From assembly GCA_963766715.1 (NCBI GenBank), contig CAVYBH010000015.1, positions 96,001 through 160,000 on the forward strand: a DNA stretch of 64,000 nt, given 5' to 3'. The notes beneath the pieces were generated by a model. That model ran no database searches. It was not told the origin of the DNA and saw only the letters and a list, made by a program, of their open reading frames with translations. A program made the translations under genes and the position numbers. This stretch comes from an uncultured delta proteobacterium (GTDB lineage: Bacteria > Myxococcota > Myxococcia > Myxococcales > Anaeromyxobacteraceae). This document shows, in pieces, positions 10,110 to 26,373 of the stretch. Each line of letters begins with the position of its first letter. Position 1 is the stretch's first letter.

Positions 10110-10121
10110 TTGTCGTCACAA
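10110..10121. promoter_or_regulatory. Possible regulator palindrome TTGT-N4-ACAA upstream of the Tsx-like gene
   Basis: TTGTCGTCACAA, AT-rich inverted repeat about 55 bp before the ATG at 10176. Confidence 0.3.
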
Positions 10122-10175
10122 TTCGGGCCCTGTACAGAGTGTGCCTTCTCGACCACCCGGAGGGCTCACACCGCC

Positions 10176-11030
10176 ATGAACCAGTCGTTCCTTCGCAGGA
10201 CGTTCCCGCTCCTCGCCGCGCTCCTCGTCCTCTTCGTCGCCGCACCGGCCGTCGCCGAGGAGGCGCCGCCTCCGCCGTCGAAGGAGGACTCGTTCTTCAC
10301 CACCACGAACGTCCAGCTGCTCTGGGGCGGCGGCTTCTCCGACGCCCAGCTCGGGTACTACACCAAGACCCAGAGCATGTTCACGCTCACGCTCAACAAC
10401 TACACGCAGTTCAAGTTCGGCGACAGCTTCGCCTTCGTCGACATGTACCAGGGCGACTTCATCAGCCCCGTCACCGGGAACCTCTCCGACGGCAACGCCA
10501 AGATCTACGGCGAGTGGCACCCCCGCCTCCTCGTCAACCAGATGCTCGGCATGAAGGACCCCGTCCTCGGCGTCATCGGCAACTGGGGCGTCGGCGCCGA
10601 GATGAACGTCGGCAGCAACTTCTCCGCCTACCTCGTCGGCCCCAGCGTCGACCTCTTCCTCCCCCTCAACATCTACGTCGGCATGGCCTTCTACTACCGC
10701 TACAGCGCCCTCTGGCTCGCCCCGGGCGTCGGCGGCACCATCTACACCAACACCTGGCAGTTCAGCCCCTACTGGACCGTCCCCTTCTCCATCGGCCCCG
10801 TCCCCTTCCTCTTCACCGGCTTCCTCGACATGTACCAGTACTCCACCGGCGGCGTGGACGTGATGTTCCAGCCCGAGCTCCTCGTCGACGTCCTCGCTCC
10901 CTTCGGCAGCAAGAAGAACACCCTCTTCGTCGGCTGCGAGTGGTACCTCCACTCCTACGTCCTCTTCGACGGCGCTACCCGCCACACCGTCTCCGCTCCC
11001 CAGATCATGGTCCAGTGGAACATCCACTGA
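10176..11030 (+). CDS. Outer-membrane nucleoside channel, Tsx/OmpK/DUF5020-like
   Basis: Signal peptide, aromatic beta-strand pattern, FGDSFAFVD, YGEWHPRL, FTGFLD, FQPELLVD; purine uptake context. Confidence 0.75.
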   Translation: MNQSFLRRTFPLLAALLVLFVAAPAVAEEAPPPPSKEDSFFTTTNVQLLWGGGFSDAQLGYYTKTQSMFTLTLNNYTQFKFGDSFAFVDMYQGDFISPVTGNLSDGNAKIYGEWHPRLLVNQMLGMKDPVLGVIGNWGVGAEMNVGSNFSAYLVGPSVDLFLPLNIYVGMAFYYRYSALWLAPGVGGTIYTNTWQFSPYWTVPFSIGPVPFLFTGFLDMYQYSTGGVDVMFQPELLVDVLAPFGSKKNTLFVGCEWYLHSYVLFDGATRHTVSAPQIMVQWNIH

Positions 11031-11046
11031 GACTTCGCCCGTGAGA

Positions 11047-11085
11047 CGACGCGCCGGCGGACCCGAGCGGCTCGCCGGCGCGTCG
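11047..11085 (+). terminator. Perfect 13-bp hairpin after the Tsx-like gene
   Basis: CGACGCGCCGGCG-13 nt-CGCCGGCGCGTCG. Confidence 0.55.
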
Positions 11086-11145
11086 CATGCAGGTCCCTTT
11101 TCCGCTAGATTCCCTGGCTCGAATCCCCCGACGAGGAGATCCCAC

Positions 11146-12144
11146 ATGCGGAAGATGCTGCTCGGCCTCCTGGCCTCCCTCCTGGTGCTCAACGTCGCCG
11201 CCGCGGCGCCGAAGTCGAAGGTGCGCATCGCGCTGATCGTGGAGTCGACGGTCGACGACAAGGGCTGGTGCCAGGCCATGCACGACGCCATCACGTCCGT
11301 GCAGAAGAAGTACGGGCCGGGGCTCGTCGAGTACGGGTACAGCGAGAAGATGAAGCCGGTGGACGCCGGGTCGGCCGCGCGCCAGTACGCGTCCAAGGGC
11401 TTCGACGTCATCATCGCGCACGGCGCCCAGTACAAGAACCTGATCCTCGAGATGGCCGAGGAGTTCCCCAAGACCACCTTCGTCTTCGGGACCAGCGCCG
11501 AGGTCGGGCCGAAGAACGTCTTCACGTACATGCCGCAGAGCGAGGAGACCGGATACCTGAACGGGCTCATCGCCGGCGCGGTCACGAAGACCAACGTGGT
11601 GGGGCTGGTGGGCCCGGTCGACGGCGGCGACGCCGCCCGGTACGACCGGGGCTTCGTCCTGGGCGTGAAGGCCGCGAACCCGAAGGCCGACGTCAAGGTG
11701 GCCCACACCGGGAGCTTCGGCGACTTCGTGAAGGCCGGAGAGCTGGCGCAGACCCAGATCAAGGCGGGCGCCGACGTCCTCACCGGCTCGTCCCAGCAGG
11801 CGCTCGGCGCGCTGCGCGCGGTGGCCGCCTACAAGGAGAAGAAGCTCTGGTGGGTCGGACAGGACCTCGCCCAGCTCAAGATGCCCGAGTCGGCGTGGGT
11901 CATCGCCGCCTCGAGCTACAACTACGCGCCGGTCATCGAGAGCATCGTCGACCGCCGGCAGGCCGGCATCCTCGGGGGCGAGAACATCCCCCTCAACTTC
12001 GCCAACGGCGGCTTCGTCTTCGAGTTCAACCCCGCGGTGGGTCCGCCGGTCGTGACGAAGGAGCTCCGGGACCGGGTCGAGGCCGCCAGGGCCGCCCTCG
12101 CCTCGGGCAAGCTCACGCTCGACTGGAAGAGCATCAAGTTCTGA
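11146..12144 (+). CDS. Second BMP-family ABC substrate-binding protein
   Basis: TVDDKGWCQAMHD, IIAHGAQY, signal peptide, RBS GAGGAG. Confidence 0.9.
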   Translation: MRKMLLGLLASLLVLNVAAAAPKSKVRIALIVESTVDDKGWCQAMHDAITSVQKKYGPGLVEYGYSEKMKPVDAGSAARQYASKGFDVIIAHGAQYKNLILEMAEEFPKTTFVFGTSAEVGPKNVFTYMPQSEETGYLNGLIAGAVTKTNVVGLVGPVDGGDAARYDRGFVLGVKAANPKADVKVAHTGSFGDFVKAGELAQTQIKAGADVLTGSSQQALGALRAVAAYKEKKLWWVGQDLAQLKMPESAWVIAASSYNYAPVIESIVDRRQAGILGGENIPLNFANGGFVFEFNPAVGPPVVTKELRDRVEAARAALASGKLTLDWKSIKF

Positions 12145-12166
12145 GGGCCTGGCCCCTGGAACACGC

Positions 12167-13688
12167 ATGAATCGAGCCGATCCGCGAGCTCGCGCTCGAG
12201 GGGATCACCAAGCGCTTCCCGGGCGTGCTGGCCTGCAACCGGGTCTCGCTCGAGGTTCGCCGCGGAGAGGCGCTGGCGCTCGTCGGGGAGAACGGCGCCG
12301 GCAAGTCCACGCTGATGAACATCCTCGCCGGGCTCTACCAGCCCGACGAGGGGCGCATCCTGGTGAACGGCGAGCCGGTCCACTTCACCTCCCCCGCCGA
12401 CGCCTTCGATCGCGGCATCGGGATGGTGCACCAGAACTTCATGCTGGTCCCCAGCATGACGGTGGCCGAGAACGTGGCCCTCGGCATGAAGACCCTCCAC
12501 CGGGGCTTCCGGCTCGACGTGAAGGAGGCGCGGCGGCGGGTCCTCGAGGTCTCGGCCCACCACGAGCTGCCGGTGAACCCGGACGCCCCGGTCTGGCAGC
12601 TCTCGGTCGGGGAGCAGCAGCGGGTCGAGCTGGTGAAGACGCTGTGCCTGGGCGCTCGCCTGCTCATCCTGGACGAGCCCACCTCCGCGCTGACGCCGCA
12701 GGAGACCGACGATCTCCTCGAGCGGCTCGCGCGGATGATGGCCGAGCTGTCGATCATCTTCATCAGCCACAAGCTGAACGAGGTGAAGGCCCTCTCCGAC
12801 CGGGTGACCATCCTCCGTCACGGCGAGGTGGTCTTCCACGGCAGCACGGTGGACCACTCCACCTCCGAGCTGGCCGCCCTGATGACGGGGCGCGACGTGA
12901 TCCAGCCGCGCAACGAGCATTCCGGCGCGCCGGGCAAGGAGATCCTCTCCGTGCGGGACCTCCGGGTCCGCGGCGATCGCGGCCACCTGGCGCTCGACGG
13001 CCTCGACCTGGACGTGCGGGCCGGCGAGATCCTGGGCCTGGCCGGGGTCTCCGGCAACGGGCAGCGCGAGCTGGCCGACGCGCTCGCCGGGCTCCGCCCC
13101 GTCGAGTCCGGCTCGATCCGCCTCGACGGCGCCGAGATCTCCGGATCCTCCCCGCGCGCCATCATCGACAAGGGCATGGGCTACGTCCCCGAGGATCGGC
13201 ACCACGAGGGGATCGTCCCGTCCTTCTCGGTGGAGGAGAACCTGGTCCTGAAGGACTTCGCCTCCCCGCGCTTCAGCCGCGGCGGCTTCCTGCGGCTCGG
13301 GGACATCCACCGGAACGCCGACGAGCTGCGCACGCGCTTCGACATCCGCTGCTCCTCCACCTCGGCGGCGGCGGGCACCCTCTCGGGCGGGAACATCCAG
13401 AAGGTCATCCTGGCGCGCGAGCTGGTCCGCGGGCCCAAGGCGCTGGTGGCGGTCTACCCGACGCGCGGCGTGGACATGGGCGCCGCCGAGTTCATCCACG
13501 GGCAGCTCCTCGCCCTGCGCCGGAGCTCGGTCGGCATCCTCCTCGTCTCGGAGGAGCTCGAGGAGATCATGAACCTCTCCGACCGGATCGCCGTCATCTA
13601 CAAGGGGCGCATCCTGGAGGTGCTCGCCTCCCGCGACGCCACCCGGCAGAAGCTCGGGCTCCTCATGGCCGGGGTGCCCCTTGGGTAG
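12167..13688 (+). CDS. ABC ATPase, two NBDs (frameshift near 5' end)
   Basis: [24 protein letters not shown]. Confidence 0.93.
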
Positions 13689-14804
13689 GCGCTTCCGGAT
13701 GCTCTACGCGGGCGGGGTGATCGCGGTGGCCGCCCTCGCGGCCGCCTCGCTCGTGGCGCTCGTGCTCGCGGCCATCGGCGCGAGCCCCTGGGCCACCTTC
13801 GGCGTCATCCTCACCGGACCGCTCCAGGATCTCTTCGGCGTGACCGAGATCCTGGTCCGCGCCGTGCCGCTCACCCTGGTGGCGCTGGGCGTCGCCATCT
13901 CCTTCCGGAGCGGCATCCTCAACATCGGCGCGGAGGGGCAGATCCTGGTGGGGATCCTCTGCGCCACCGGCGTGGCGCTGTGGCTTCCGCAGTGGCCCCG
14001 CGTCGGCGCTCCTGCCGCTCTGCCTCGCCGCCGGCGCCGTGGGCGGCGCGCTCTGGGGCGGGATCGCCGGCGTGCTGCGCGCGAAGCTCGACGTGAACGA
14101 GATCCTGAGCACGGTGATGCTCAACTACATCGCCGCGCAGCTCTACACCTTCATGCTCCGCGGGCCGCTCATCGATCCGGCCGAGATGATGACCGGGTCG
14201 GGCACCCCGCAATCGATGCGGCTCGCGCGTGCGGCCTGGCTCGATCGCCTGGTTCCGGGGACGAGGCTCCACACCGGGCTCGTGATCGCGCTCGTCCTGG
14301 CCGCCCTCGTCTGGGTGCTCCTCTGGCGGACCACGGCGGGCTTCCGGATGCGGGCCTCCGGCGCGGGGAGCAAGGCCGCCCGCTACGCCGGCATCCCCGT
14401 CGAGCGATCGCTCGTCGTCGCCATGCTCCTCGCCGGCGGCTTCGCCGGGCTGGCCGGCGCCATCGAGGTGCTCGGCGTGCACCACCGGGCCATCGAGAAC
14501 ATCTCCTCCGGGTACGGGTTCGCCGCGATCGTGGTGGCCCTCTTCGGCGGGCTCCACCCTGCCGGCATCGTGCCCGCCGCGGTCTTCTTCGGGCTGCTCC
14601 TCGTGGGCGCGGACATGACGCAGCGCTCGGCCGGCGTCCCGGCCAACATGGTGCTCGTGCTCCAGGGCGCCATCATCCTGGCCATCGTCTCGGCCCGGAT
14701 GTACGTCGACAATCCCGTACACCCGGCAGCGGGCCGCGCGCTTCCTCGAGCGCTTCCTGCCCGGGAGGTCCGCCGGCGGCGCGGCCGGGGAGCCCGGGCC
14801 ATGA
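13681..14804 (+). CDS. ABC permease (frameshifts ~14005 and ~14715)
   Basis: LNIGAEGQ, NEILSTVMLNY, GYGFAAIVVALFGGLHP; repaired frame ends at ATGA overlap 14801-14804. Confidence 0.88.
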
Positions 14805-15748
14805 CGCTCCAGCAGATGGCCTACGACATCCTCTCGCTCGGCGTCCCCTTCTCGGTGGCCCTGCTGCTCGCCGCGCTGGGCGAGATGTTCAACCAGCGCG
14901 CGGGGGTCTTCAACCTGGGGTGCGAGGGCATCATGAGCATGGGGGCCTTCGTCGGCTTCCTGCCCGCGTACCTGGCCCGCTCCGGCTCGCTGGGGCCCTG
15001 GGCCGACCTGCTCGGATTCGCGCTCGCGGCGCTGGCCGGCGTGCTCCTCGGGCTGCTCTTCGGGCTCGTGACCGTCACCTTCCGCGCCCCGCAGGGCATC
15101 GCCGGCATCGGCCTCGCCATGCTCGGCACCGGCGTCGCCGGCACGCTGTTCCGCCACTACGTCGGCGGCGTGACGGGCGTGGAGGGCGTGGCCGCGATGC
15201 CGATCCCGTGGCTCTCGCGCATCCCCTTCCTGGGCGGCGTCCTCTTCCACCACAACCCGGTGGTCTACGTCGCCTTCCTCCTGGTCCCGGCGAGCTGGTA
15301 CCTGCTCTACCGCACCTCCTGGGGGCTCCGGGTCCGGGCGGTGGGCACGCATCCCCGCGCGGCGGACACCATGGGGATCGACGTGAACCGGGTGCGCTAC
15401 CAGGCGCTCATGCTGGGCGGGGCCATGGGCGCCATGGGCGGCGCCTACCTGGCCCTGTGCCAGGCCAAGATGTTCGCCGACGACCTGGTGGCGGGGCGAG
15501 GGTTCATCGCGGTGGCGCTCGTCTACTTCGGCCGGTGGAGCCCCTGGGGCGTCGCCGGCGGCGCGCTGCTCTTCAGCCTCGCCCAGTCCCTGCAGCTCTC
15601 CCTCCAGGTCTGGGGGATCAAGTTCCCGTACGAGTTCGCCGTGATGCTCCCGTACGTCCTCGTGATCGTCGTGCTGGCGCTGGCCCGGTCCCGGACGCTC
15701 GGCCCCACGGCGCTCGGGAAGGCGTTCAACCGGGAGATGCGGATCTGA
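14801..15748 (+). CDS. ABC permease
   Basis: QRAGVFNLGCEG, AGRGFIAVALV, MLPYVL. Confidence 0.92.
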   Translation: MTLQQMAYDILSLGVPFSVALLLAALGEMFNQRAGVFNLGCEGIMSMGAFVGFLPAYLARSGSLGPWADLLGFALAALAGVLLGLLFGLVTVTFRAPQGIAGIGLAMLGTGVAGTLFRHYVGGVTGVEGVAAMPIPWLSRIPFLGGVLFHHNPVVYVAFLLVPASWYLLYRTSWGLRVRAVGTHPRAADTMGIDVNRVRYQALMLGGAMGAMGGAYLALCQAKMFADDLVAGRGFIAVALVYFGRWSPWGVAGGALLFSLAQSLQLSLQVWGIKFPYEFAVMLPYVLVIVVLALARSRTLGPTALGKAFNREMRI

Positions 15749-17408
15749 AGCCCGCCTGGAACATCGGCGCGAGCCCGACCACCAGCGCGCAGCCGATGAC
15801 GTTGTACCAGAGGTAGCCCACGTTCCCGAAGGCGGCGAGCGCCAGCACCGCGGCCTCGCCGGCGAGCGTGGCGGCGAGCGCGGCGCGCCCCTGGACGCGC
15901 GCGAGGAAGAAGCCCACCAGGAAGACGCCGAGCATGGGCCCGTAGAAGAGCGAGCCCACCACGTTCACCGCCTGGATGAGGTTGTCGAGGAGCGACGCGA
16001 ACCCCGCGAAGCCCACCGCGACCGCGCCCCACGCGGCGGTCGCGATCCGGGCCACGCGGAGCGTCTGGGCGTCGGTCGCGCCGGGGTGGCGCGGCTTGTA
16101 GAAGTCGACCACGGTGGTGGCGCCGAGCGACGAGAGCGCCGCCGAGTTCGCCGACATGGCCGCCGAGAGGATCACCGCCACGAGGAGCCCGACGAGGCCC
16201 CGGGGAAAGTGATCGAGCACGAACCGGAGGAAGATGAAGTCGGAGTCCTTCCGGTCGGCTCCGGGCAGGGTTCGCGTGGCGAGCGACCCGAACTCCTTGC
16301 GGATCGATTCCATCCGCGATTCCTGCACCCGCACCTCGGCCCTCGCCGCGGCGCTCTCGGCCGGCGCCGCCGACGGCGCGAGCATCCGATCGATGGCCAC
16401 GCGCTTCTCCGCGAAGGCAGCCCCGTAGGCGGTCTCGAGGCGCGCCACGTCGGCGCCGCTCCGCTCCCGGACCCCCTCGAGCGTGGCCCGGTCGAAGAAG
16501 AGCGGCGGCGGGCTCAGCTGGTAGAAGACGAAGACCATGACCCCGATGAAGAGGATGAAGAACTGCATCGGGACCTTCAGGAAGCCGTTCATGAGCAGGC
16601 CGAGCCGGCTCTGCGAGAGCGGCCCGCCCGCCAGGTAGCGTTGCACCTGCGACTGGTCGGTGCCGAAGTAGGCGAGCTGGACGAAGAGCCCGCCGAGCAG
16701 CCCGGACCAGAGCGTGTAGCGCGTGTCGACGCGCGCCGAGAGGTCGACGGCGTGGAGCTTGCCGAGCGCGCCGGCGAGCTCGATGCCCTGGCCCAGCGAG
16801 ACGCCGCTCGGGAAGCTCGCCACCGCGGTGACGAGCGCCGCGAGCAGCCCCACGAAGATGACCACCATCTGCGCGGACTGCGTCCGGCTCACCGCCCGGC
16901 TGCCGCCCGCCACGGTGTAGGCGATGGTGATGCCGCCGAGCAGGAGGTTCGTCCAGCCCGCCGGCCAGCCCAGCACCGCAGAGAGCACCAGCGCCGGCGC
17001 GTAGATGGCGAGCCCGGAGGCGAGGCCGCGCGAGACCAGGAAGAGCAGCGCCACGAACTGGCGCGTCCGGCGATCGAAGCGCCTCTCGAGGTACTCGTAG
17101 GCCGTGTAGACGTTCAGGCGGTGGTAGATGGGCAGGAAGACCACCGACAGGATCACCATCGCGACGGGCAGCCCGAAGTAGAACTGCACGAAGCCCACGC
17201 CGTCCACGTAGGCCTGGCCGGGAACCGACAGGAAGGTGATGGCGCTCGCCTGGGTGGCGATCACCGAGAGCCCGATGGTCCACCAGCGCAGGTCGGCCCC
17301 GGCGCGCAGGTAGGCGTCGGTGGTGTGGACGCGGCGGCTCCTCCAGGAGCCGTAGGCCACGATCCCGGCGAGGGTGAGGGCGAGCACCGCCCAGTCGAGG
17401 CCGCTCAC
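15726..17408 (-). CDS. Sodium:solute symporter (SSS) family transporter
   Basis: ATQASAITFLSVPGQAY, TAYEYLERRFD, GTDQSQVQRYL, SAAMSANSAAL. Confidence 0.95.
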   Translation of the reverse strand: MSGLDWAVLALTLAGIVAYGSWRSRRVHTTDAYLRAGADLRWWTIGLSVIATQASAITFLSVPGQAYVDGVGFVQFYFGLPVAMVILSVVFLPIYHRLNVYTAYEYLERRFDRRTRQFVALLFLVSRGLASGLAIYAPALVLSAVLGWPAGWTNLLLGGITIAYTVAGGSRAVSRTQSAQMVVIFVGLLAALVTAVASFPSGVSLGQGIELAGALGKLHAVDLSARVDTRYTLWSGLLGGLFVQLAYFGTDQSQVQRYLAGGPLSQSRLGLLMNGFLKVPMQFFILFIGVMVFVFYQLSPPPLFFDRATLEGVRERSGADVARLETAYGAAFAEKRVAIDRMLAPSAAPAESAAARAEVRVQESRMESIRKEFGSLATRTLPGADRKDSDFIFLRFVLDHFPRGLVGLLVAVILSAAMSANSAALSSLGATTVVDFYKPRHPGATDAQTLRVARIATAAWGAVAVGFAGFASLLDNLIQAVNVVGSLFYGPMLGVFLVGFFLARVQGRAALAATLAGEAAVLALAAFGNVGYLWYNVIGCALVVGLAPMFQAGFRSASPG

Positions 17409-17503
17409 GGGAACGCCCTCGAGAGCAGCCACAGGAGCGCGATCTCCACGGCGAGCGCCGCGAGCACCAGCGCGTACAGGCGCCCCCAGGACCTAGCGGG
17501 CAT
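17405..17503 (-). CDS. 32-aa single-TM micro-protein between PIG-L and SSS (not in ORF track)
   Basis: MPARSWGRLYALVLAALAVEIALLWLLSRAFP*; overlaps the PIG-L stop, and its TGA overlaps the SSS GTG. Confidence 0.7.
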   Translation of the reverse strand: MPARSWGRLYALVLAALAVEIALLWLLSRAFP

Positions 17504-19964
17504 GGTCGAGGAGGTTCGCGAAGAGCCGGAAGGCGCCCGGGACGCCGGCGGGGAGCTGCCGGAAGAAGGAGAGCCCCGTGTAGACGAAGACCCCCTTCCC
17601 GTAGGCGCCGACGAGGAGCGCGCCCTTCTGGGGCTTCTCGCCCGGGTCGTGCATCGACAGCGGCGCCGCGTAGCGATCGTCCCAGGTCTCGGCGAAGTAG
17701 AGCCCGCGCTCCTGGACCCAGCCCGCCCAGTCGGCGGCCTCGATCCGGTTGGGCGTCGAGAGCACCGGGCTCGGCGTGGCCGTCACGGCGGCGTCCTCGT
17801 CGGTGACCCGGCCGCGACCGATGGTGAACGGGTAGGGCCCGATGTCGGGCGGCGCGTTCGAGATCCAGTTGTGGGTCAGGTACTGGACGACCACCGTCCC
17901 GCCGCGCTTCACGTAGGCCATGAGCGGGTCGTGCAGGCCCGCCAGCTGCGGCGTCACGTTGAAGGCCCGGATCCCGAAGACGATGGCGTCGAAGCGGTCG
18001 AGGGGCCGGTCGCGAAGCTCCTGGGGCGTGAGCAGCGTGACCGCGTAGCCCGCCTGGCGGAGCGCGTCCGGCACCTCGTCGCCCGGGCCGGGCACGTAGC
18101 CGATCTCGTGGCGCGCGTGGAGCACGTCGACGCGGGTGAGCCTCACCTCGGCGAGCGGCAGCCAGGTCTGGATGGGGATGTGCGCGTGGTCCACGCGTCG
18201 GACGCCGCGGTCGAAGCGCTCCCCGTCCACGGTGGCGACCGCGAGCAGCCGCCCGGTCGCGGCCGTCCTCGGCGGGGTGACCCGGAAGGTCACCTCCGTC
18301 TCGCCCCCCGCGGCGAGCTGGAACGGGAGGCTGGCCGGGGTGAAGGTGAAGCCCTCGGGAACCTCGAGGGTCACGGTCCCGGTCGCGCCGGAGACGCTCC
18401 GGAGCGTCACCGAGAACGGGCGCGGAGCGGCCTCGGGGAAGAGCAGGAGCTCGCCCCGCGGATCGAGCGTGACGCGCGGAAGGACCTCCACCCGCCGGTA
18501 GCGTTCCCCCTGGACCGGGTCCACCCACTTGAAGACGACCGGGCGGCGGACCCGGAGGGTCTCTCCGCCGATGGAGAGGACGAACTCCGCCTCGAGCGGG
18601 GCCGGCTCCTCCGGGATGCCGGCGAGCGCCGGGTCGGCCACCGGGTAGAGCCCCGGCGTGGCCGCCACCTCGAGCCAGGCCGGGTTCGAATAGCGGGCGT
18701 CCCGGGGAACCTGGATGGCCTCCTTCTGCTCGAACGGCACGTTCGACTGGAGCTTGCGCCCCGGCGAGAGGTCCTTCCCCGGAAGCCTGACCTCGACGAG
18801 GTCGATCGCCACCGGCCGCCGCGCCAGCGCGGTGACGGTGACGGGCAAGGACGCGCCTCGGGAGGTGGCCGGCGCCCCGGCCGCGACCTCGGTGAAGATC
18901 CCGGCGCAGGCCAGGATGGCCGCCTCGATCTCCGCCAGCTTCTGCGCCTTCCACGGATTCCCGGGAAGCCGCGCCAGCTCGGCCCGCGCCGCGAGCAGCC
19001 CCGGGATCGCCGCCTCGGGCGTGGCGGCACGGAAGGCGGCGCGCGCCCGGGTGAGCTCGGCGACCAGCCGGGCCGTGCCCGGGACCCGCGTCCAGTCGAG
19101 GGTCAGTCCATCGAACGGCGACGCCTGCATGGGCTCGCCGGCGATCGGCTTGAAGAACTCGAGCACGGGTCCGCGGCGACGAGCGGCCCCGAAGCCCTGG
19201 CTCTTGTGGTTGCTGCGGCTGTCGGCGGCGAGCTCGCCGTAGGAGAGCCCGAGCCACGGGTCGTATCCGCCCACGTCGACGCGGGGGAAGGCGGAGAGCT
19301 CGCTCTCCGTGGCGCCCCAGCCCGCGGTCTGGTTCCAGACCACCCGCCTCGCCTTCCAGGCTCCGAGTCGCCGGTGCTCGGCATCGGGCATGTAGGCGGG
19401 GTCGGCGGCGAGCGCGAAGGCGTCGGCCGCGAGCTTCGCCGATGCGATGTGGTGACCGTGGGTGTCGAGCCCGTCGAGCGGGAAGCGGGTGATGACCACG
19501 TCGGGGCGCAGGCGCCGGATGGCGAGGACCACGTCGGCCAGCACCGCGTCCCGGCCCCAGATGGCGAGCGACTCCTCGGCGCTCTTCGAGTAGCCGAAGT
19601 CGCGAGCGCGGGTGAAGAGCTGCTCGGCGCCGTCCTGGGCGCGGGCCGCCAGCAGCTCCTGGGTGCGGATGAGCCCGAGGCCTGGACCGAGGTCGGGGCC
19701 GATGAGGTTCTGTCCGCCGTCCCCGCGGGTGATCGACAGGTAGCCCGCTCCGAGCAGCTTCCCGTTCGCCAGGTAGGCGAGGAGCCGCGTGTTCTCGTCG
19801 TCGGGGTGGGCCGCCACGAAGAGCACGTTGCCCACCACGAGGAGCCGATCGAGCTGCCGCTCGAGCCGCGCGGCGTCCGGCTGGGGGGGGCGCAAGGGCG
19901 GCGCCGCGACGGCTGTGGAGGCGAGCAGGAGGGCGGCCATGGCGGCAGGAGGGGTTCGGGGCAT
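17493..19964 (-). CDS. Secreted multidomain PIG-L/LmbE-family deacetylase (Ig-like middle, class I GATase-like C-terminus)
   Basis: AAHPDDE, TRGDGGQN, RTQELLAAR, DFGYSKS, HGHH; hydrophobic N-terminus ending AVAA. Confidence 0.9.
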   Translation of the reverse strand: MPRTPPAAMAALLLASTAVAAPPLRPPQPDAARLERQLDRLLVVGNVLFVAAHPDDENTRLLAYLANGKLLGAGYLSITRGDGGQNLIGPDLGPGLGLIRTQELLAARAQDGAEQLFTRARDFGYSKSAEESLAIWGRDAVLADVVLAIRRLRPDVVITRFPLDGLDTHGHHIASAKLAADAFALAADPAYMPDAEHRRLGAWKARRVVWNQTAGWGATESELSAFPRVDVGGYDPWLGLSYGELAADSRSNHKSQGFGAARRRGPVLEFFKPIAGEPMQASPFDGLTLDWTRVPGTARLVAELTRARAAFRAATPEAAIPGLLAARAELARLPGNPWKAQKLAEIEAAILACAGIFTEVAAGAPATSRGASLPVTVTALARRPVAIDLVEVRLPGKDLSPGRKLQSNVPFEQKEAIQVPRDARYSNPAWLEVAATPGLYPVADPALAGIPEEPAPLEAEFVLSIGGETLRVRRPVVFKWVDPVQGERYRRVEVLPRVTLDPRGELLLFPEAAPRPFSVTLRSVSGATGTVTLEVPEGFTFTPASLPFQLAAGGETEVTFRVTPPRTAATGRLLAVATVDGERFDRGVRRVDHAHIPIQTWLPLAEVRLTRVDVLHARHEIGYVPGPGDEVPDALRQAGYAVTLLTPQELRDRPLDRFDAIVFGIRAFNVTPQLAGLHDPLMAYVKRGGTVVVQYLTHNWISNAPPDIGPYPFTIGRGRVTDEDAAVTATPSPVLSTPNRIEAADWAGWVQERGLYFAETWDDRYAAPLSMHDPGEKPQKGALLVGAYGKGVFVYTGLSFFRQLPAGVPGAFRLFANLLDHAR

Positions 19965-20007
19965 TTGGTGGGAAGCACGCGGCCTTGCGGTTAGCTTCCT
20001 TGTCTAA

Positions 20008-21611
20008 ATGAACATGGACTTCTTTGCCTCGTTCATCGACGGGGCAAGCGCCGCCACGGACTTGCTGCCCGCGAGGCCTCTCGACGAGGCGGCCTGGGCG
20101 GCGGCCGCCCGGCGAGCCAGCGGCCGGGGCCTGGCCCCCGGGCTGCTCGCCGAGATCCGGCGGCAATCCGCCGCGCTTCCCCCCTCGCCCGCCCGGGAAC
20201 GCAGCCTGGAATCGCTCTCCCGGCCGGACGCCACGGTCGTCGTGACCGGCCAGCAGGTGGGGCTCTTCCTCGGGCCGCTCTACACCCTGCACAAGGCGGC
20301 GACGGTGGTGGCCCGCGCCCGGATGGTCGAGCGGCTCACCGGCCTGCCCTGCGTCCCGGTGTTCTGGCTCCAGACCGAGGACCACGACTGGGCCGAGATC
20401 GCGACCGCCGAGGTCCTCGTCCCGGCAGGTCGCCAGGTGCTGGCGCTCCCGCCGGAGTCCCCGCAGGCGGCGCGCCTCTCCCTCTCCCACCGCACCCTGC
20501 CCGCGGAGGTGGAAGGACTCGTCTCGAGGCTGACGGAGCTCCTCGAGCCCCTGCCCTTCGCGGCCGAGGTGACGGGGCTCCTCGGGCGCCACTACCGCGC
20601 CGGCGCCGCGCCTGGCGCCGCCTTCGCCGGGGTCCTGGCCGAGCTCTTCTCCCGCGAGGGGCTCGTCGTCCTCGATCCCCGGACGCCCGCGATCTCCCGC
20701 CTGGCGGCGCCCGTGCTGCGGCGAGCCGTCGTCGAGCACGCCGAGATCGGGGCGCTCCTCGGCGCCCGGGCGGCCGAGCTCGCCGCGCGGCACTTCGCCG
20801 AGCAGGTGCATACCCGCGGCGAGACCTCGCTCGCCTTCTTCCATCCGCGCGGGCCGGGCGGTCCGCGCTACCGGCTGGTGGGCGACGGGGCGGGGTATTC
20901 CACCCCGGAGGGGCCGGTCTCGCGCGCCGCCCTGCTCGGGCAACTCGAGCAGGACCCGCTCTGGTTCAGCACCTCCGCGCTCCTGCGGCCGCTCGTGCAG
21001 GACACGCTCCTCCCCACGGCCGCCTACGTCGGCGGCCCGGCCGAGTGCACCTACTTCGCCCAGCTCCCGCCCCTCTACGCGCGCTTCGGTCTCGAGCTGC
21101 CCATGATCGCGCCGCGCGCCCGGCTGCGGCTGGTCGTTCCGAAGGCGCGCCGCGAGCTCGAGCGGCTCGGGCTGCGGACCGCCGACACCGACCGGCCGCG
21201 CGACGTGCTGCTCCAGGAGCTCGTCGCCCGCCCGCCCGACCTGCCTCCCGGGGACGCGCTGCGCGAGCGTCTGCTCGGCTCGCTCGAGCGCGAGCTCTCG
21301 GCCCTCTCTCCGGCGCTCGCCGCCCTCGACCCCCTGCTCGAGCGGAACGTCGCGGCGGACCGCGGGACCACGCCACCTTCGCGGTGGGCCGGCTCGTCGC
21401 CGGGGTGGAGCGGGCGCTCGCCAGGAAGGACGAGGTGACCGTGAAGCGGCTCGATCGGCTGCTCGAGGCGCTCCGCCCGTCCGGCAAGCCGCAGGAGCGG
21501 GTCTACGCCTTCCCGGCGCTCGCGGCGCGCGCCGGCTGCCGCGTGCTCGTCGACGCCATCGTCGCCGCGGCCGAGCCCCTCTCCCCCGCGGTGAGGGACG
21601 TGAACCTGTGA
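20008..21611 (+). CDS. bshC: Bacillithiol cysteine-adding enzyme BshC (frameshift ~21360)
   Basis: VVTGQQVGLFLGPLYTLHKA, PVFWLQTEDHDWAEI, LLRPLVQD, YVGGPAECTYFAQ, PQERV. Confidence 0.93.
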
Positions 21612-22781
21612 AGGCGCTGCGCATCGGCATCGCCTGCTTCCCGACGGTGGGCGGCAGCGGCGTGGTCGCCTCCGAGCTCGCCACCCACCTCGGTCGGCGC
21701 GGCCACCAGGTCCACGTCTTCTCCTCGAAGGTCCCGTTCCGCCTGGCCCGGGGGGAGCCGCGCGTCGAGGTGCACGTCGTCGATCCGCAGCGGCGCCCGC
21801 CCCTGGAGAACGACGCGTACTCGCACGCGCTCGCGGGCGCCATGGCGGAGGTGGCGGTCACGGGCGGGCTCGACGTCCTGCACGTGCACTACGCCCTGCC
21901 CCACGCGCCCAGCGCGCTGGCCGCGCGCCAGATCGTCCAGGCCGGCGGGCGGAGGGCCCCGCGGCTCGTCACCACCCTCCACGGCACCGACGTGACGAAC
22001 GTCGGGGAGGACCCGGCGCTGCGGATGGTCACCCGCCACGCCGTGCTGTCGAGCGACGTCGTGACCACGCCCTCCGCCTGGCTGCGGGAGGCGGCCCTCG
22101 GGAACCTCGAGCTTCCTGCCGGCACGCGGATCGAGGTGGTCCCGAACTTCGTCGACCTGGAGGCCTTCCACCCCTCGCCGGACCGCCCGGACCTGCGCGC
22201 GCTGTTCCCGCGGGAGCGATGGGACGGCGCGGAGCGTCCCGGCGTCCTGCTGCACGCCTCGAACTTCCGGAAGCTGAAGCGGGTCGGCGACGCGGTGACC
22301 GCCCTCGCGGAGTTGGTCCGGACCCGTCCCGCGGTGCTCGTGCTGGTCGGGCGACGGCCCCGAGCGGGCGAGCGTCGAGGAGCTGGCCGCGTCCCTCGGG
22401 CTCTCCGGCCGCGTCGCCTTCCTGGGGGAGCGCCCCGATCTCGGGCCGCTCTTCTCCCAGGCCGACCTCTTCCTGCTCCCCAGCGATCAGGAGAGCTTCG
22501 GGCTCGCTGCGCTCGAGGCGCTCGCGTCGGGCGTTCCCGTGGTGGCGAGCCGCGTGGGTGGGCTCCCCGAGGTCGTGGTCGACGGCACGACCGGCCTGCT
22601 GGTCCCGCCCCACGCGCCCCACGCCCTCGCGGCCGCCGTCCTGGAGCTCCTGGGCGACGAGCCGCGCCGGACGGCCATGGGGCGGGCGGCGCGCGAGGAC
22701 GCGGCCACCCGCTTCCGGCCGGAGCCGGTGGTGGATCGCTACGAGGCGATCTACCGCGAGGCCGCCGAGCGCTGGGACTGA
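21608..22781 (+). CDS. bshA: N-acetyl-alpha-D-glucosaminyl L-malate synthase BshA (frameshift ~22351)
   Basis: IGIACFPTVGGSGVVASEL, LHVHYALPHA, TTLHGTDVT, HASNFRKLKR, ESFGLAALEA. Confidence 0.94.
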
Positions 22782-22782
22782 G

Positions 22783-23634
22783 CTACTTCTTCCAGTCGGC
22801 GATGGCCTTCGCGATGTCGTCGGCGAGCGGGAAGCTCTGCGACTTCTTCCCGAGCTCCTGGCTGCGCTCGGCCACCTTCACGGCCTCCGCCTTCTTGCCC
22901 GAGGCGGCGAGCAGCTGCGCCTTCACCCACAGGTTGTACCACTCCTCCTTCAGGCCGATGGACCGGTCGACGAGCTGCATCGCGAGCGCCGGCTCGGTCT
23001 TCGACTCGAGCAGGTAGCGGGCCGCGTTCGCGTAGGGGCGCCAGTCGTCGGACTTCAGGGACTGGATGGCGGAGAGCACGGCCGCGCGGGTGGCGACCTC
23101 GAACTTCACTCCCACGCGGAGCGTGTCCCACTCGAGCGCGAGCGTGCCGCCGTCGTCGTTGAAGTCGAGGATCTCGAACGCCAGGTGCTCGCGCGCCGGG
23201 ATGGCCGTCGCCGTGGCCGGGACGCGCAGGAGGTCGTTCTCCGGCTTGTAGTCGTAGGCGCCCCAGAGCTTCGTGTCCTTGTTGAGGATGAAGGTCCAGC
23301 CGGCCTTGGTGGGCAGCAGGAAGAGGCAGTAGGTGCCCGCCGGGACGGCCTTCCCGCCGATGGTGGCCGCGGTCGAGAGCGTGAGCTTCGAGCACTCGTT
23401 GGCGCCGGCCCGCCACACCTCGTCGAAGGGAACGACGTCGCCCCAGATCTTCCGCCCCTTCACGGCCGGGCTCGAGTAGGTGACGGTGACGTCGGTGAGC
23501 CCGACCGTCTGCTTCACCGTCGCGTTCGGGCTGGGCTTCGGGAGCACGAGCTTGGGCGGCTCCTGGGCCGCCGTGCTTCCGCAGACGAGGGCTCCGGCGA
23601 GGGCGACGAGGGCGAGGCGGGAAGGAGCGTTCAT
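22783..23634 (-). CDS. Secreted DUF2911-like protein with TPR-like C-terminus
   Basis: PSPNATVKQTVGLTDVTVTYSSPAVKGRKIWG, WRAGANE, GTYCLF. Confidence 0.82.
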   Translation of the reverse strand: MNAPSRLALVALAGALVCGSTAAQEPPKLVLPKPSPNATVKQTVGLTDVTVTYSSPAVKGRKIWGDVVPFDEVWRAGANECSKLTLSTAATIGGKAVPAGTYCLFLLPTKAGWTFILNKDTKLWGAYDYKPENDLLRVPATATAIPAREHLAFEILDFNDDGGTLALEWDTLRVGVKFEVATRAAVLSAIQSLKSDDWRPYANAARYLLESKTEPALAMQLVDRSIGLKEEWYNLWVKAQLLAASGKKAEAVKVAERSQELGKKSQSFPLADDIAKAIADWKK

Positions 23635-23724: not shown

Positions 23725-26373
23725 TCAGCGGGGCGGCGCCGCGGGCGCCACGGCCACCATCGGGATGTCGCCGAGGTCGACGGGCGCATCCGGCCGGGCC
23801 CGTGCGGTGACGGTGACGGGCGAGTAGCCCAGGGCCGCGGCGCTGACCTGGTGGTCGCCCTCGGACGTGATCCGCGTGAAACGGCCGGTCGCGCCGACCC
23901 CGTAGCGGCGGGAGGCGGTCCCGTCGACGAGGACGCGCGCCCGCGTCAGCGCCTTCCCGGTGGCGGCGTCGACGAGGCGGCCGGTCACCGTGCACGCCGG
24001 CGAGAGCAGGACCTCGACCGCCTTCGACTCCCCTGCCCCGGCCGAGACCTGCGCGTCCCCCACCCGGCCGTCGGCGGTCTTCACGTGAAGCGCGATCTGA
24101 CCCGGGGCGACGTCGTCGAGGTCGAAGGTGGCGTTCGCGAACTGCTGCTCCGAGGAGCCTCCGGGCAGGAAGGTGCGCTGGCTCACCGTGACGCCGAAGG
24201 ACTCCGGCGCGGGCTCGCCCAGGAGCCGCCCGTGGAGGCTCGCCGCGGGCTGGAGCTGGATCAACGCGTCGGCGACGGGCGGGGTGACCGTGGCGCTGCC
24301 CGTCCGCCCGCCGATTCGCGCGTTCACCTGGACCGGTGCGGACGCGGCGGACGACAGCGAGAAGGCGCCCTCCGGGTCGGTCTGGGTGGCCTGGAAACCC
24401 GAACCGGGCGAGCCGATCCAGACGGCGGCGCCGATGGCCGGGGCCGCGCCCGGCTCGAGCACGTGACCCGACACCGTCGGCGGGGGGTCGGCGGGAAGGA
24501 CCAGGTTCGCCAGGACGCGCTGACCCGCCGCGAGCTGGACCGTGGCGAGCGCGGCGGGGCGACCCGCGAAGCGGAACGTGCCGCCGGGCCGGATGGCGTG
24601 GACCCCGTAGGAACCGGGCGCCAGGGCGAGGAGATAGGCCCCGTTCGCGTCGGACGTGATCTGGCGCGCCTCGCCCGGTCGGGGCGGTCCGCTCCCGGTG
24701 GTGGTCCACACCATCGCGCCGGGCACCGGGTCTCCCACGGCGTCGAGGACCGCGCCCGAGACCACTCCGCCCTCCGAGAGGACCAGGTCGACGCTGGTGG
24801 TCTCTCCTTCCTCGACCGCGACCACGTTCACCGCGGCGGGCGACCCGAGGTCGCGGCGACCGCTCACGCGGAGCTGGCCTGGCGTGACCCCCTCGATCCG
24901 GAACCGGCCGCTCGAGTCGGTCCGGGCGGCGACCGCGGCGGCCTGGCCTGCGGCTCCTCCGCCTCCTGCGCCCCCGCCCCAGGCCCCGGGCCCGGCGCCC
25001 CGGCCCCACGGACCGTCGGCCGCGACCAGCGCCCCGCTCACCGGGAGCCCCTCCGTGTCGGTCACCGTTCCCTCCAGGACCGACGGCGGGACGAGCGTGA
25101 CGTCGAGGCGGAAGCGATCGCCTTGGCGGAGGTTCACTGCCGGGACCTGGGCGTTCCCGTGGCCGGTCGCGGAGATTGAGACCGCGTGGAGGCCCGGCAG
25201 GAGCCCCGTGAGCTCGTAGCTCCCGTCGGCCCGGGACGTCGTCCGGGCCGGATTCGCCGCGTCGCCCTGGAAGGCGACGGAGACCGACGCTCCTCGAACG
25301 GGACCCTTCGCCGAGCCGACGACTCCGGAGATCGAGGCCGCGGGCCCGAGCGCGATCTCGACGCCGCGCACGGTGGCTCCAGCGGCCACGGGGAGGACCC
25401 TGCCGGCCGAGCCGGTCTCGGCCCCGTGCCGGGCGAAGGCGCGGTGAAGCCCCGGCTCGACGTCGGCCGCAAACCCGCCGCCCGGCCCCGCCTCGACGAC
25501 CACCGGCTCTCCCGCCCCCATCACGGTGACCGTCGCCCCCGGCGCCGGCCGGCCGTCCCGCGTGACCGTTCCCTCGACGGTTCCGGCCGCCCCGAGGTCG
25601 ATGCGAAGCTCGGAGCCGTGCGGCACCGCCACGTCGTGCCGGTGACCGGCCGCGTGCCCCTCTGCGCGCGCCTCCACCTCGAAGCGCCCCGGCTGCAGGC
25701 CGGCGATGCGGAACTCCCCGCGCTCGTTCGAACTCGCGGTGGCGCGCTCCTCCGGAGGGAGCTCGAGCCTTCGCAGCCCGGCGCCGCGCCGGACGGGCGT
25801 GGCCACCACGGTCGCGAAGGGCACGGGTTCGCCGCCCTTCCTCTCGACCGTGCGGCCAGCCAGGGTGGCCGCCGCGGCGAGCTTCAGCTCGACGGGGGTC
25901 CTGGGCTCCCCGGCGGGCCGGACCGCCTCCACGAAGCCTCGCGCGAGACCCGGCGCCGACGCGACGACCAGGTACGATCCCGCGGCAGCCGCGAGGAAGA
26001 CGGTCCCGTCGGGCCCGCTCTGTCCCGCGCCCGCCGGCCTCCATCCCGCCGCACCGGGCGCATCCGCCCGATTGTAGAGCCGGATCTCGGCGCCCGGGAC
26101 GGGGCCGCCGGTGGCGCTCACCAGGACCTGGAATCCCCCGTCCTCGGTCGGGTTCCCGGGGGCGGCGATGGCCGGATCCGGAATCTTCCCTGCCGCAGGG
26201 TCCGCCGTCCTGGCCACGGCGGCGGCGGGCGAACCCGGCTCGGATGCCGGCGTCCTGGCCCCCGGACCGTGGTGGCCCGTCGCCAGGAAGTACCCGGCGA
26301 GCACGAGCGCCACGACGACGACCGCGACCGCGAGGATCGGCAACGCTTTCCGGGTGCGCATCCGGCGTAGCAA
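23725..26373 (-). CDS. Membrane-anchored protein with tandem carboxypeptidase-regulatory-like (prealbumin-fold) repeats
   Basis: N-terminal TM, repeated GxV..G.PV.GA.V and TD..G.F...GL.PG.Y units. Confidence 0.8.
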   Translation of the reverse strand: MLRRMRTRKALPILAVAVVVVALVLAGYFLATGHHGPGARTPASEPGSPAAAVARTADPAAGKIPDPAIAAPGNPTEDGGFQVLVSATGGPVPGAEIRLYNRADAPGAAGWRPAGAGQSGPDGTVFLAAAAGSYLVVASAPGLARGFVEAVRPAGEPRTPVELKLAAAATLAGRTVERKGGEPVPFATVVATPVRRGAGLRRLELPPEERATASSNERGEFRIAGLQPGRFEVEARAEGHAAGHRHDVAVPHGSELRIDLGAAGTVEGTVTRDGRPAPGATVTVMGAGEPVVVEAGPGGGFAADVEPGLHRAFARHGAETGSAGRVLPVAAGATVRGVEIALGPAASISGVVGSAKGPVRGASVSVAFQGDAANPARTTSRADGSYELTGLLPGLHAVSISATGHGNAQVPAVNLRQGDRFRLDVTLVPPSVLEGTVTDTEGLPVSGALVAADGPWGRGAGPGAWGGGAGGGGAAGQAAAVAARTDSSGRFRIEGVTPGQLRVSGRRDLGSPAAVNVVAVEEGETTSVDLVLSEGGVVSGAVLDAVGDPVPGAMVWTTTGSGPPRPGEARQITSDANGAYLLALAPGSYGVHAIRPGGTFRFAGRPAALATVQLAAGQRVLANLVLPADPPPTVSGHVLEPGAAPAIGAAVWIGSPGSGFQATQTDPEGAFSLSSAASAPVQVNARIGGRTGSATVTPPVADALIQLQPAASLHGRLLGEPAPESFGVTVSQRTFLPGGSSEQQFANATFDLDDVAPGQIALHVKTADGRVGDAQVSAGAGESKAVEVLLSPACTVTGRLVDAATGKALTRARVLVDGTASRRYGVGATGRFTRITSEGDHQVSAAALGYSPVTVTARARPDAPVDLGDIPMVAVAPAAPPR

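Follow-up and report, generated by a model that had tools for sequence, protein, structure and literature searches.

In this work we have examined a putative bacillithiol (BSH) salvage module in an uncultured delta proteobacterium of the family Anaeromyxobacteraceae (Myxococcota; GenBank assembly GCA_963766715.1). The window, by which we mean the whole analysed stretch of 64,000 nucleotides (positions 96,001 to 160,000 of contig C15, CAVYBH010000015.1), has a G+C content of about 70% and belongs to a 4.2-Mb genome with a completeness of 84.6%; the best named relative is an Anaeromyxobacteraceae metagenome-assembled genome (74% identity). Here bshC and bshA stand next to a divergent operon encoding a large PIG-L/LmbE protein, a membrane peptide of 32 amino acids and a sodium:solute symporter (SSS). 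A preliminary description of this DNA had drawn the same layout, and every feature it named was found in the window (Table 1). The ATG codons of the PIG-L and bshC genes are 43 bp apart, the DUF2911 gene adjoins the bshA stop on the minus strand in convergent orientation with the two stop codons separated by 1 bp, and there is no short bshB in the window. Nor did the whole genome, as far as it is complete, yield bshB1 or bshB2: TIGR04001 (BshB1) and TIGR04000 (BshB2) had no match at E<=0.001 anywhere in it, the large PIG-L included. The bshC and bshA genes overlap by 4 nt, as do the stop of the peptide gene and the GTG start of the SSS gene, and no sigma-70 consensus site was found in the 43-bp spacer.

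Table 1. Features of the bacillithiol locus (window coordinates) and of the catabolic homolog clusters (coordinates within the named loci)
Feature	Position	Strand	Basis or content
SSS, 560 aa, predicted GlcN-malate importer	15726..17408	-	PF00474, TIGR00813
Single-helix membrane peptide, 32 aa, predicted SSS partner	17405..17503	-	hydrophobic open reading frame
PIG-L/LmbE zinc-amidohydrolase-type protein, 823 aa	17493..19964	-	PF02585 at 48-182, NEW3 at 529-572
Divergent spacer, 43 bp	19965..20007		between PIG-L and bshC starts
bshC, cysteine-adding enzyme	20008..21611	+	TIGR03998; frameshift near 21351-21362
bshA, GlcNAc-malate synthase	21608..22781	+	TIGR03999, two frames; frameshift near 22352
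DUF2911 protein with signal-like N-terminus	22783..23634	-	PF11138
Catabolic clusters	L154:965-11364, L155:1-11370, L156:1803-11361, L157:1-9915; metagenome loci L158-L237		PIG-L, ROK, ABC, lyase, kinase

Profile matches place orthologs of both bshA and bshC at the locus: BshC scored 324.9 bits against TIGR03998 (cut-off 265.8) and BshA matched TIGR03999 with 242.5 and 146.2 bits, split over two frames. Each of these genes carries a frameshift which the preliminary description had not mentioned. Because the contigs of close relatives (single contigs of thin depth) do not have the surplus bases seen near 21351, 21362 and 22352, both frameshifts are probably assembly errors.

The first product of the divergent operon scored 53.5 bits against PF02585 (cut-off 28.2), and the residues H53, D55, D56, H169 and H172 are invariant in all 92 aligned PIG-L sequences, with the HPDDE and HGxH motifs intact. 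Judged by profiles, it is inside the PIG-L/LmbE superfamily and outside the Mca and MshB families, since its scores against TIGR03446 for Mca (34.2 bits, cut-off 277.15) and against the MshB profile (29 bits, cut-off 224) lie far under both cut-offs. Its fold and metal motif are those of BshB1, of BshB2/Bca from Bacillus and Staphylococcus and of MshB/Mca, and it is likewise placed with bshA and bshC. However, BshB/Mca-type enzymes have about 230-300 residues and the motif HPDH, whereas the large PIG-L has HGHH, is coupled to an importer gene and, with its 823 residues, several domains and hydrophobic N-terminus, does not have the size and domain composition of BshB1 or BshB2. A signal-like N-terminus is followed by the catalytic domain, by beta-strand-rich NEW3-like middle domains and by a C-terminal GATase1/ThuA-like domain. 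In the AlphaFold model (pLDDT 94.7) the N-terminal domain superimposes on MshB with Z 22.6 and a root-mean-square deviation (rmsd) of 3.0 over 226 aligned residues and on BshB 6ull with Z 19.0 and rmsd 2.7 over 196, and in the mature model residues 597-803 superimpose on GATase1/ThuA-like domains (Z 15.9, rmsd 3.0, 187 aligned). A single-sequence search found no solved structure spanning the entire protein, and a profile search matched the catalytic domain alone. Signal-like N-termini were called throughout by a simple hydropathy rule, not by SignalP. The N-terminus of the window protein reaches a hydropathy of 2.15 over 10 residues and the hydrophobic segment is kept across the family: it was present in 77 of the 79 copies from our genome scan, against 3 of 43 catabolic homologs which are described below. 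Its frequency is about equal in copies from genomes with bshB1 (20/24) and without it (16/19), so that a decay of the signal peptide in bshB1-less genomes, which we had considered, was not seen.

The transporter is a member of the SSS family (TIGR00813, 225.5 bits against a cut-off of 184; PF00474 also matched), and its nearest solved relatives, SMVT, NIS, SMCT1 and 5nv9, include anion carriers. A genome scan with the PIG-L gave an estimate of about 11,000 stretches, and our counts of loci cover the 80 that were returned, mostly from Bacteroidota. An SSS gene was near PIG-L in 63 of these 80 loci (48 of the 55 with 5 kb of downstream flank), and a hydrophobic micro-ORF (open reading frame) directly preceded the SSS start, mostly with a 4-nt overlap, in 60 of the 73 loci examined. 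We predict from this arrangement that the 32-residue peptide is a partner of the SSS. A small membrane-protein gene also adjoins the transporter gene in ActP-YjcH and MctC-MctB (PMC5847655, in the excerpt available); unlike those systems, the window peptide falls into no Pfam or NCBIfam family and the predicted cargo is an amino-sugar acid. The DUF2911 protein matches PF11138 at E 1.6e-49 (167.9 bits, cut-off 27), its gene occurs in 40 of the 80 PIG-L loci, and its model (pLDDT 96.2) consists of a beta-rich domain plus TPR-like helices. Foldseek returned no match to it at E<=0.001 but weak TPR matches, its structural matches in the Atlas were TPR look-alikes only (<0.9), and a sequence search of the PDB gave no useful match. 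It may be a co-inherited accessory, and is predicted to be exported.

The link to BSH claimed in the preliminary description was borne out by co-occurrence in three phyla and by two gene orders in Myxococcota. Among 61 relatives, bshC and PIG-L were found in the same 12 genomes. Among 251 Myxococcota, bshC was present in 93 and PIG-L in 92, all within those 93, and none of the 158 bshC-negative genomes had PIG-L. One unpublished genome, G552, counts as one in each of the tallies of 92, 93 and (below) 36, and no claim hangs on it. The genes are arranged either divergently, as in the window, or co-directionally in the order DUF2911-bshC-(bshB1)-bshA-PIG-L-SSS. In Planctomycetota, where the genes are unlinked, all 33 PIG-L genomes have bshC and none of the 88 bshC-negative genomes has PIG-L; the nominal p of 5e-10 is overstated, since kin are not independent. 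In the Bacteroidota sample bshC was present in 55 of 55 PIG-L genomes, and PIG-L in 0 of 8 bshC-negative ones (p 0.051). The sole bshC-positive Myxococcota genome without PIG-L, G505, is uninformative as a counterexample, its bsh-like matches being atypical: the BshC- and BshA-like matches lie in or beside a single ORF of 1,696 codons (L271:2291-7378). As separate observations from the genome scan, a gamma-glutamyltranspeptidase gene was near the module in 21 of 80 loci and a DUF1572/DinB gene in 10 of 80 (L077:657-2369, L085:3182-3724). These loci were almost exclusively of the Chitinophagales type, and we treated both genes as synteny and not as parts of the module.

The cargo proposed in the preliminary description, of the GlcN-malate (glucosamine-malate, GlcN-Mal) type, is supported as a prediction by gene clusters around catabolic homologs of the PIG-L. 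A plasmid search returned 22 records with distant homologs, of which four were opened (Thalassospira, Bacillus sp. F19, Aminobacter and Parasedimentitalea). In all four, PIG-L stood beside an ABC importer, an ArgH-like lyase and a ROK-family protein, and in three also beside a sugar kinase. The kinases resembled PfkB or NagK, and both scanned ROK proteins resembled NagC/Mlc, with every score under the equivalog cut-offs. The lyase exceeded the cut-off of TIGR00838 and carries the signature SSIMPQKRNP. Compared with the argininosuccinate lyase/fumarase superfamily at large, it forms a separate subfamily within sugar-uptake operons. A metagenome scan with this lyase gave 80 loci, and the subsets counted here are those with enough flank. 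Of the 45 loci with at least 7 kb upstream, 35 had PIG-L; of the 48 with sufficient sequence downstream, 36 had PfkB and 13 a deaminase of the NagB or NagB-II-like type. None of the 80 carried bshA, bshC, SSS or DUF2911. The 10 of 45 clusters without PIG-L keep the binding protein, and 6 of these have NagB-II. There was no NagA among the 32 of 47 downstream cluster representatives scanned, a scan confined to downstream genes. Enzymes of this lyase superfamily act on 2-substituted succinates, for example L-malate, by eliminating fumarate; the substrate of NagB is glucosamine-6-phosphate. A deacylase, lyase, kinase and deaminase together would convert an N-acyl-glucosamine-malate, which is the bacillithiol core, to fumarate and fructose-6-phosphate. 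The reaction accordingly predicted for the lyase is the elimination of fumarate from a malate glycoside, for which we found no description in the literature searched.

Do the PIG-Ls of producers and of these catabolic clusters act on the same compound? All 41 catabolic PIG-Ls keep the motifs HPDDE, RGxGGQN, DFxFSK, HGHH and RxxH. The two contexts are also linked by the Bacillus binding protein, which is 42-44% identical to one replacing the SSS beside PIG-L in three loci of the Bacteroidota sample. A shared substrate is likely on these grounds. The lyase subfamily was not found in the 80 PIG-L genomes searched (of 140 chosen; 79 with bshC), where the best score was 277 bits and members reach at least 659, and we therefore dropped a catabolic role in BSH producers; in them the product would go to BshC and not to catabolism. 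Three further observations concern individual loci. In L134, L138 and L139 a distant PIG-L subfamily is followed by a relative of the Bacillus ABC importer in place of the SSS. The Bacillus cluster itself encodes a creatininase-family amidase (L155:4029-4775) alongside a PIG-L with a signal-like N-terminus, which suggests two deacylation steps, one outside and one inside the cell. A catabolic-type PIG-L downstream of nagB (L188:11978-14539) has a twin-arginine-like N-terminus, and its relatives are signal-less.

More questions are raised by the missing bshB step. No second PIG-L was found in the 84.6% complete genome of the window, and no bshB ortholog in relatives which are 92-99% complete. 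Among the 92 Myxococcota with PIG-L, bshB1 exceeded the cut-off in 56 and had no match at E<=1e-28 in 36. PF02585 was searched for in 16 genomes, and in 10 of them, the single-contig G592 included, it matched no PIG-L besides the large one. The 25 bshB1-less genomes that were fetched all have bshA, and in 15 the order is co-directional bshC-bshA-PIG-L with PIG-L directly after bshA. No replacement deacetylase emerged from these clusters, whose other genes each recur in at most 4 loci; a creatininase was dropped as a candidate, being found in only 2 of 5 bshB1-less genomes. In Planctomycetota a BshB1-like gene is present in 79 of the 80 bshC genomes without the module. The same sample contains 54 genomes with a BshB1-like match (E<=1e-22) and no bshC match. 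The preliminary description had thought a role as biosynthetic deacetylase unlikely for an exported PIG-L, and this part of it was not supported as it stood. To exclude a biosynthetic role is unsafe, because bshB1 is often absent where bshC and PIG-L are kept, the large PIG-L is often the sole PIG-L, and some PIG-L enzymes are known to act both as deacetylases and as amidases (PMC5790435, in the part available). In bshB-less genomes the step would fall either to the large PIG-L, through a periplasmic detour or with part of the protein in the cytoplasm, or to an unlinked enzyme with a different fold.

Taken together, we favor a modified form of the salvage cycle which the preliminary description had sketched, keeping its link to BSH and its cargo and giving up the exclusion just mentioned: a periplasmic amidohydrolase would make GlcN-Mal, and a peptide-coupled SSS would import it for BshC. 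We put the probability of this reading at about 0.6; the export of the PIG-L, its substrates and the cargo of the SSS are what we infer from sequence. According to this model, the exported PIG-L would be a periplasmic zinc amidohydrolase that deacylates the glucosamine nitrogen of compounds of the bacillithiol family. BSH, its disulfides or its S-conjugates would give a cysteine derivative and GlcN-Mal, and N-acetylglucosamine-malate (GlcNAc-Mal) would probably be cleaved as well, to acetate and GlcN-Mal. The SSS with its peptide would then carry out a sodium-driven import of GlcN-Mal, which BshC would re-ligate with cysteine. In bshB1-less genomes, that of the window included, the loop may also supply the missing BshB step, a point on which we are less confident. 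A wider and more tentative version, which we consider rather doubtful, would make BSH metabolism an extracytoplasmic cycle in which many myxobacteria obligatorily export GlcNAc-Mal, deacetylate it by PIG-L and return the product through the SSS, the same PIG-L family also heading BSH catabolism. The periplasmic route would thus have made bshB dispensable, and alphaproteobacteria and some Bacillus would eat bacillithiol, an ArgH-like glycosyl-malate lyase releasing glucosamine and fumarate.

Several points weigh against the salvage cycle. The call of export depends on a crude hydropathy rule, and the n-region of the window PIG-L is atypical. No exporter of BSH or GlcNAc-Mal was identified. The Myxococcota genes are adjacent, so that their co-occurrence reflects one cassette in related, non-independent genomes; in Planctomycetota 27 of the 33 PIG-Ls are from distant subfamilies, and in Bacteroidota the contrast is marginal. 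Most bshC genomes of Bacteroidota (88 of 143) and of Planctomycetota (80 of 113) do without the module, which is therefore dispensable. All 33 Planctomycetota with PIG-L also keep a BshB1-like gene. An Opitutaceae genome, G062 (L042), has PIG-L and DUF2911 and neither a bshC match nor an SSS within 8 kb. The catabolic PIG-Ls form a separate clade, with local identities of some 25-40% and changes at the conserved C-domain residues R666, Q751 and R802, and for these reasons their substrate may differ; that of the lyase is itself something we infer.

Could the SSS carry another cargo? It may be that PIG-L cleaves BSH S-conjugates outside the cell, that the SSS imports intact BSH, its disulfide (BSSB) or the cysteine part, and that an unlinked, non-PIG-L cytoplasmic enzyme performs the BshB step. 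The specificity of an SSS is unreadable from its sequence, and the nearest solved relatives carry varied anions. The retention of bshB1 in 56 of 92 Myxococcota and of its counterpart in every Planctomycetota genome with the module also means that the module has a job besides that of BshB. However, the lyase clusters which lack PIG-L and keep the binding protein, six of them with NagB-II, indicate that it is the deacylated amino-sugar which is transported, and no replacement deacetylase recurs in the bshB1-less clusters, a creatininase being found in only 2 of 5 bshB1-less genomes. We regard this alternative as unlikely. Still less probable, in our view, is that the large PIG-L, or a form of it starting at an internal methionine, is a cytoplasmic non-orthologous BshB and the SSS a separate importer. 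The frequency with which it is the sole PIG-L and its place directly after bshA in bshB1-less clusters would fit such a role, in several copies the signal region is short and a second Met codon is present, and signal-less homologs exist; yet hydrophobic N-termini are about as common with bshB1 as without it, and the linkage to SSS and peptide is retained where bshB1 is present. Equally improbable is that what the module scavenges is some N-acyl amino sugar with no relation to BSH, its bsh link being inherited synteny: bshA and bshC are each near PIG-L in only 6 of the 80 loci, 74 having neither within 8 kb, the Opitutaceae exception exists and a different 2-substituted succinate could be the substrate of the lyase, but the unlinked co-occurrence in Planctomycetota (33/33 against 0/88), the two gene orders with bsh genes and the fit of lyase, kinase and NagB to GlcN-malate chemistry all speak for BSH.

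Two neighbors of the locus were also noted. An operon for a Bmp-family ABC transporter (window 10110-15748), whose last gene overlaps the 3' end of the SSS gene by 23 bp and whose permease region is seemingly frameshifted or fused, was excluded from the module because it does not recur at other loci. Just upstream of the DUF2911 gene, on the same strand, lies a gene for an 882-residue protein with repeated carboxypeptidase-regulatory-like domains (23725-26373, minus strand), for which conservation with the module was not seen.

In glutathione salvage, a periplasmic gamma-glutamyltranspeptidase works together with importers. The logic of the module is alike, in that a thiol would be cleaved outside the cytoplasm and a building block re-imported, although the proteins and the thiol are unrelated. 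The 2018 review PMC5790435 cites glutathione export to the periplasm of E. coli, describes Bca as regenerating GlcN-Mal for BSH recycling and calls the import and export of BSH or BSSB unclear (in the part of its text available). We found no description of the module or of the lyase cluster in a mostly brief screening of mainly open literature, confined to main texts, and the available parts of PMC6282198, PMC12719100, PMC5790435 and PMC5847655 do not mention the module. It seems to be a real and conserved branch of bacillithiol metabolism outside the cytoplasm, apparently uncharacterized and assembled from protein families already known. No bacterial thiols, it has been argued, are more widespread than BSH derivatives (PMC6282198, in the part available), and for the question of BSH import and export the module offers a candidate enzyme and a candidate importer, so that this question is now directly testable. 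The catabolic clusters are a candidate degradation pathway for bacillithiol or GlcN-malate; they propose a catabolic route for BSH and a new reaction for a lyase now annotated as argininosuccinate lyase, the label 'argH' being probably a misannotation. Lastly, the module could explain how BSH is synthesized in genomes which have bshA and bshC and no bshB, genomes that surveys requiring all three bsh genes would miss.

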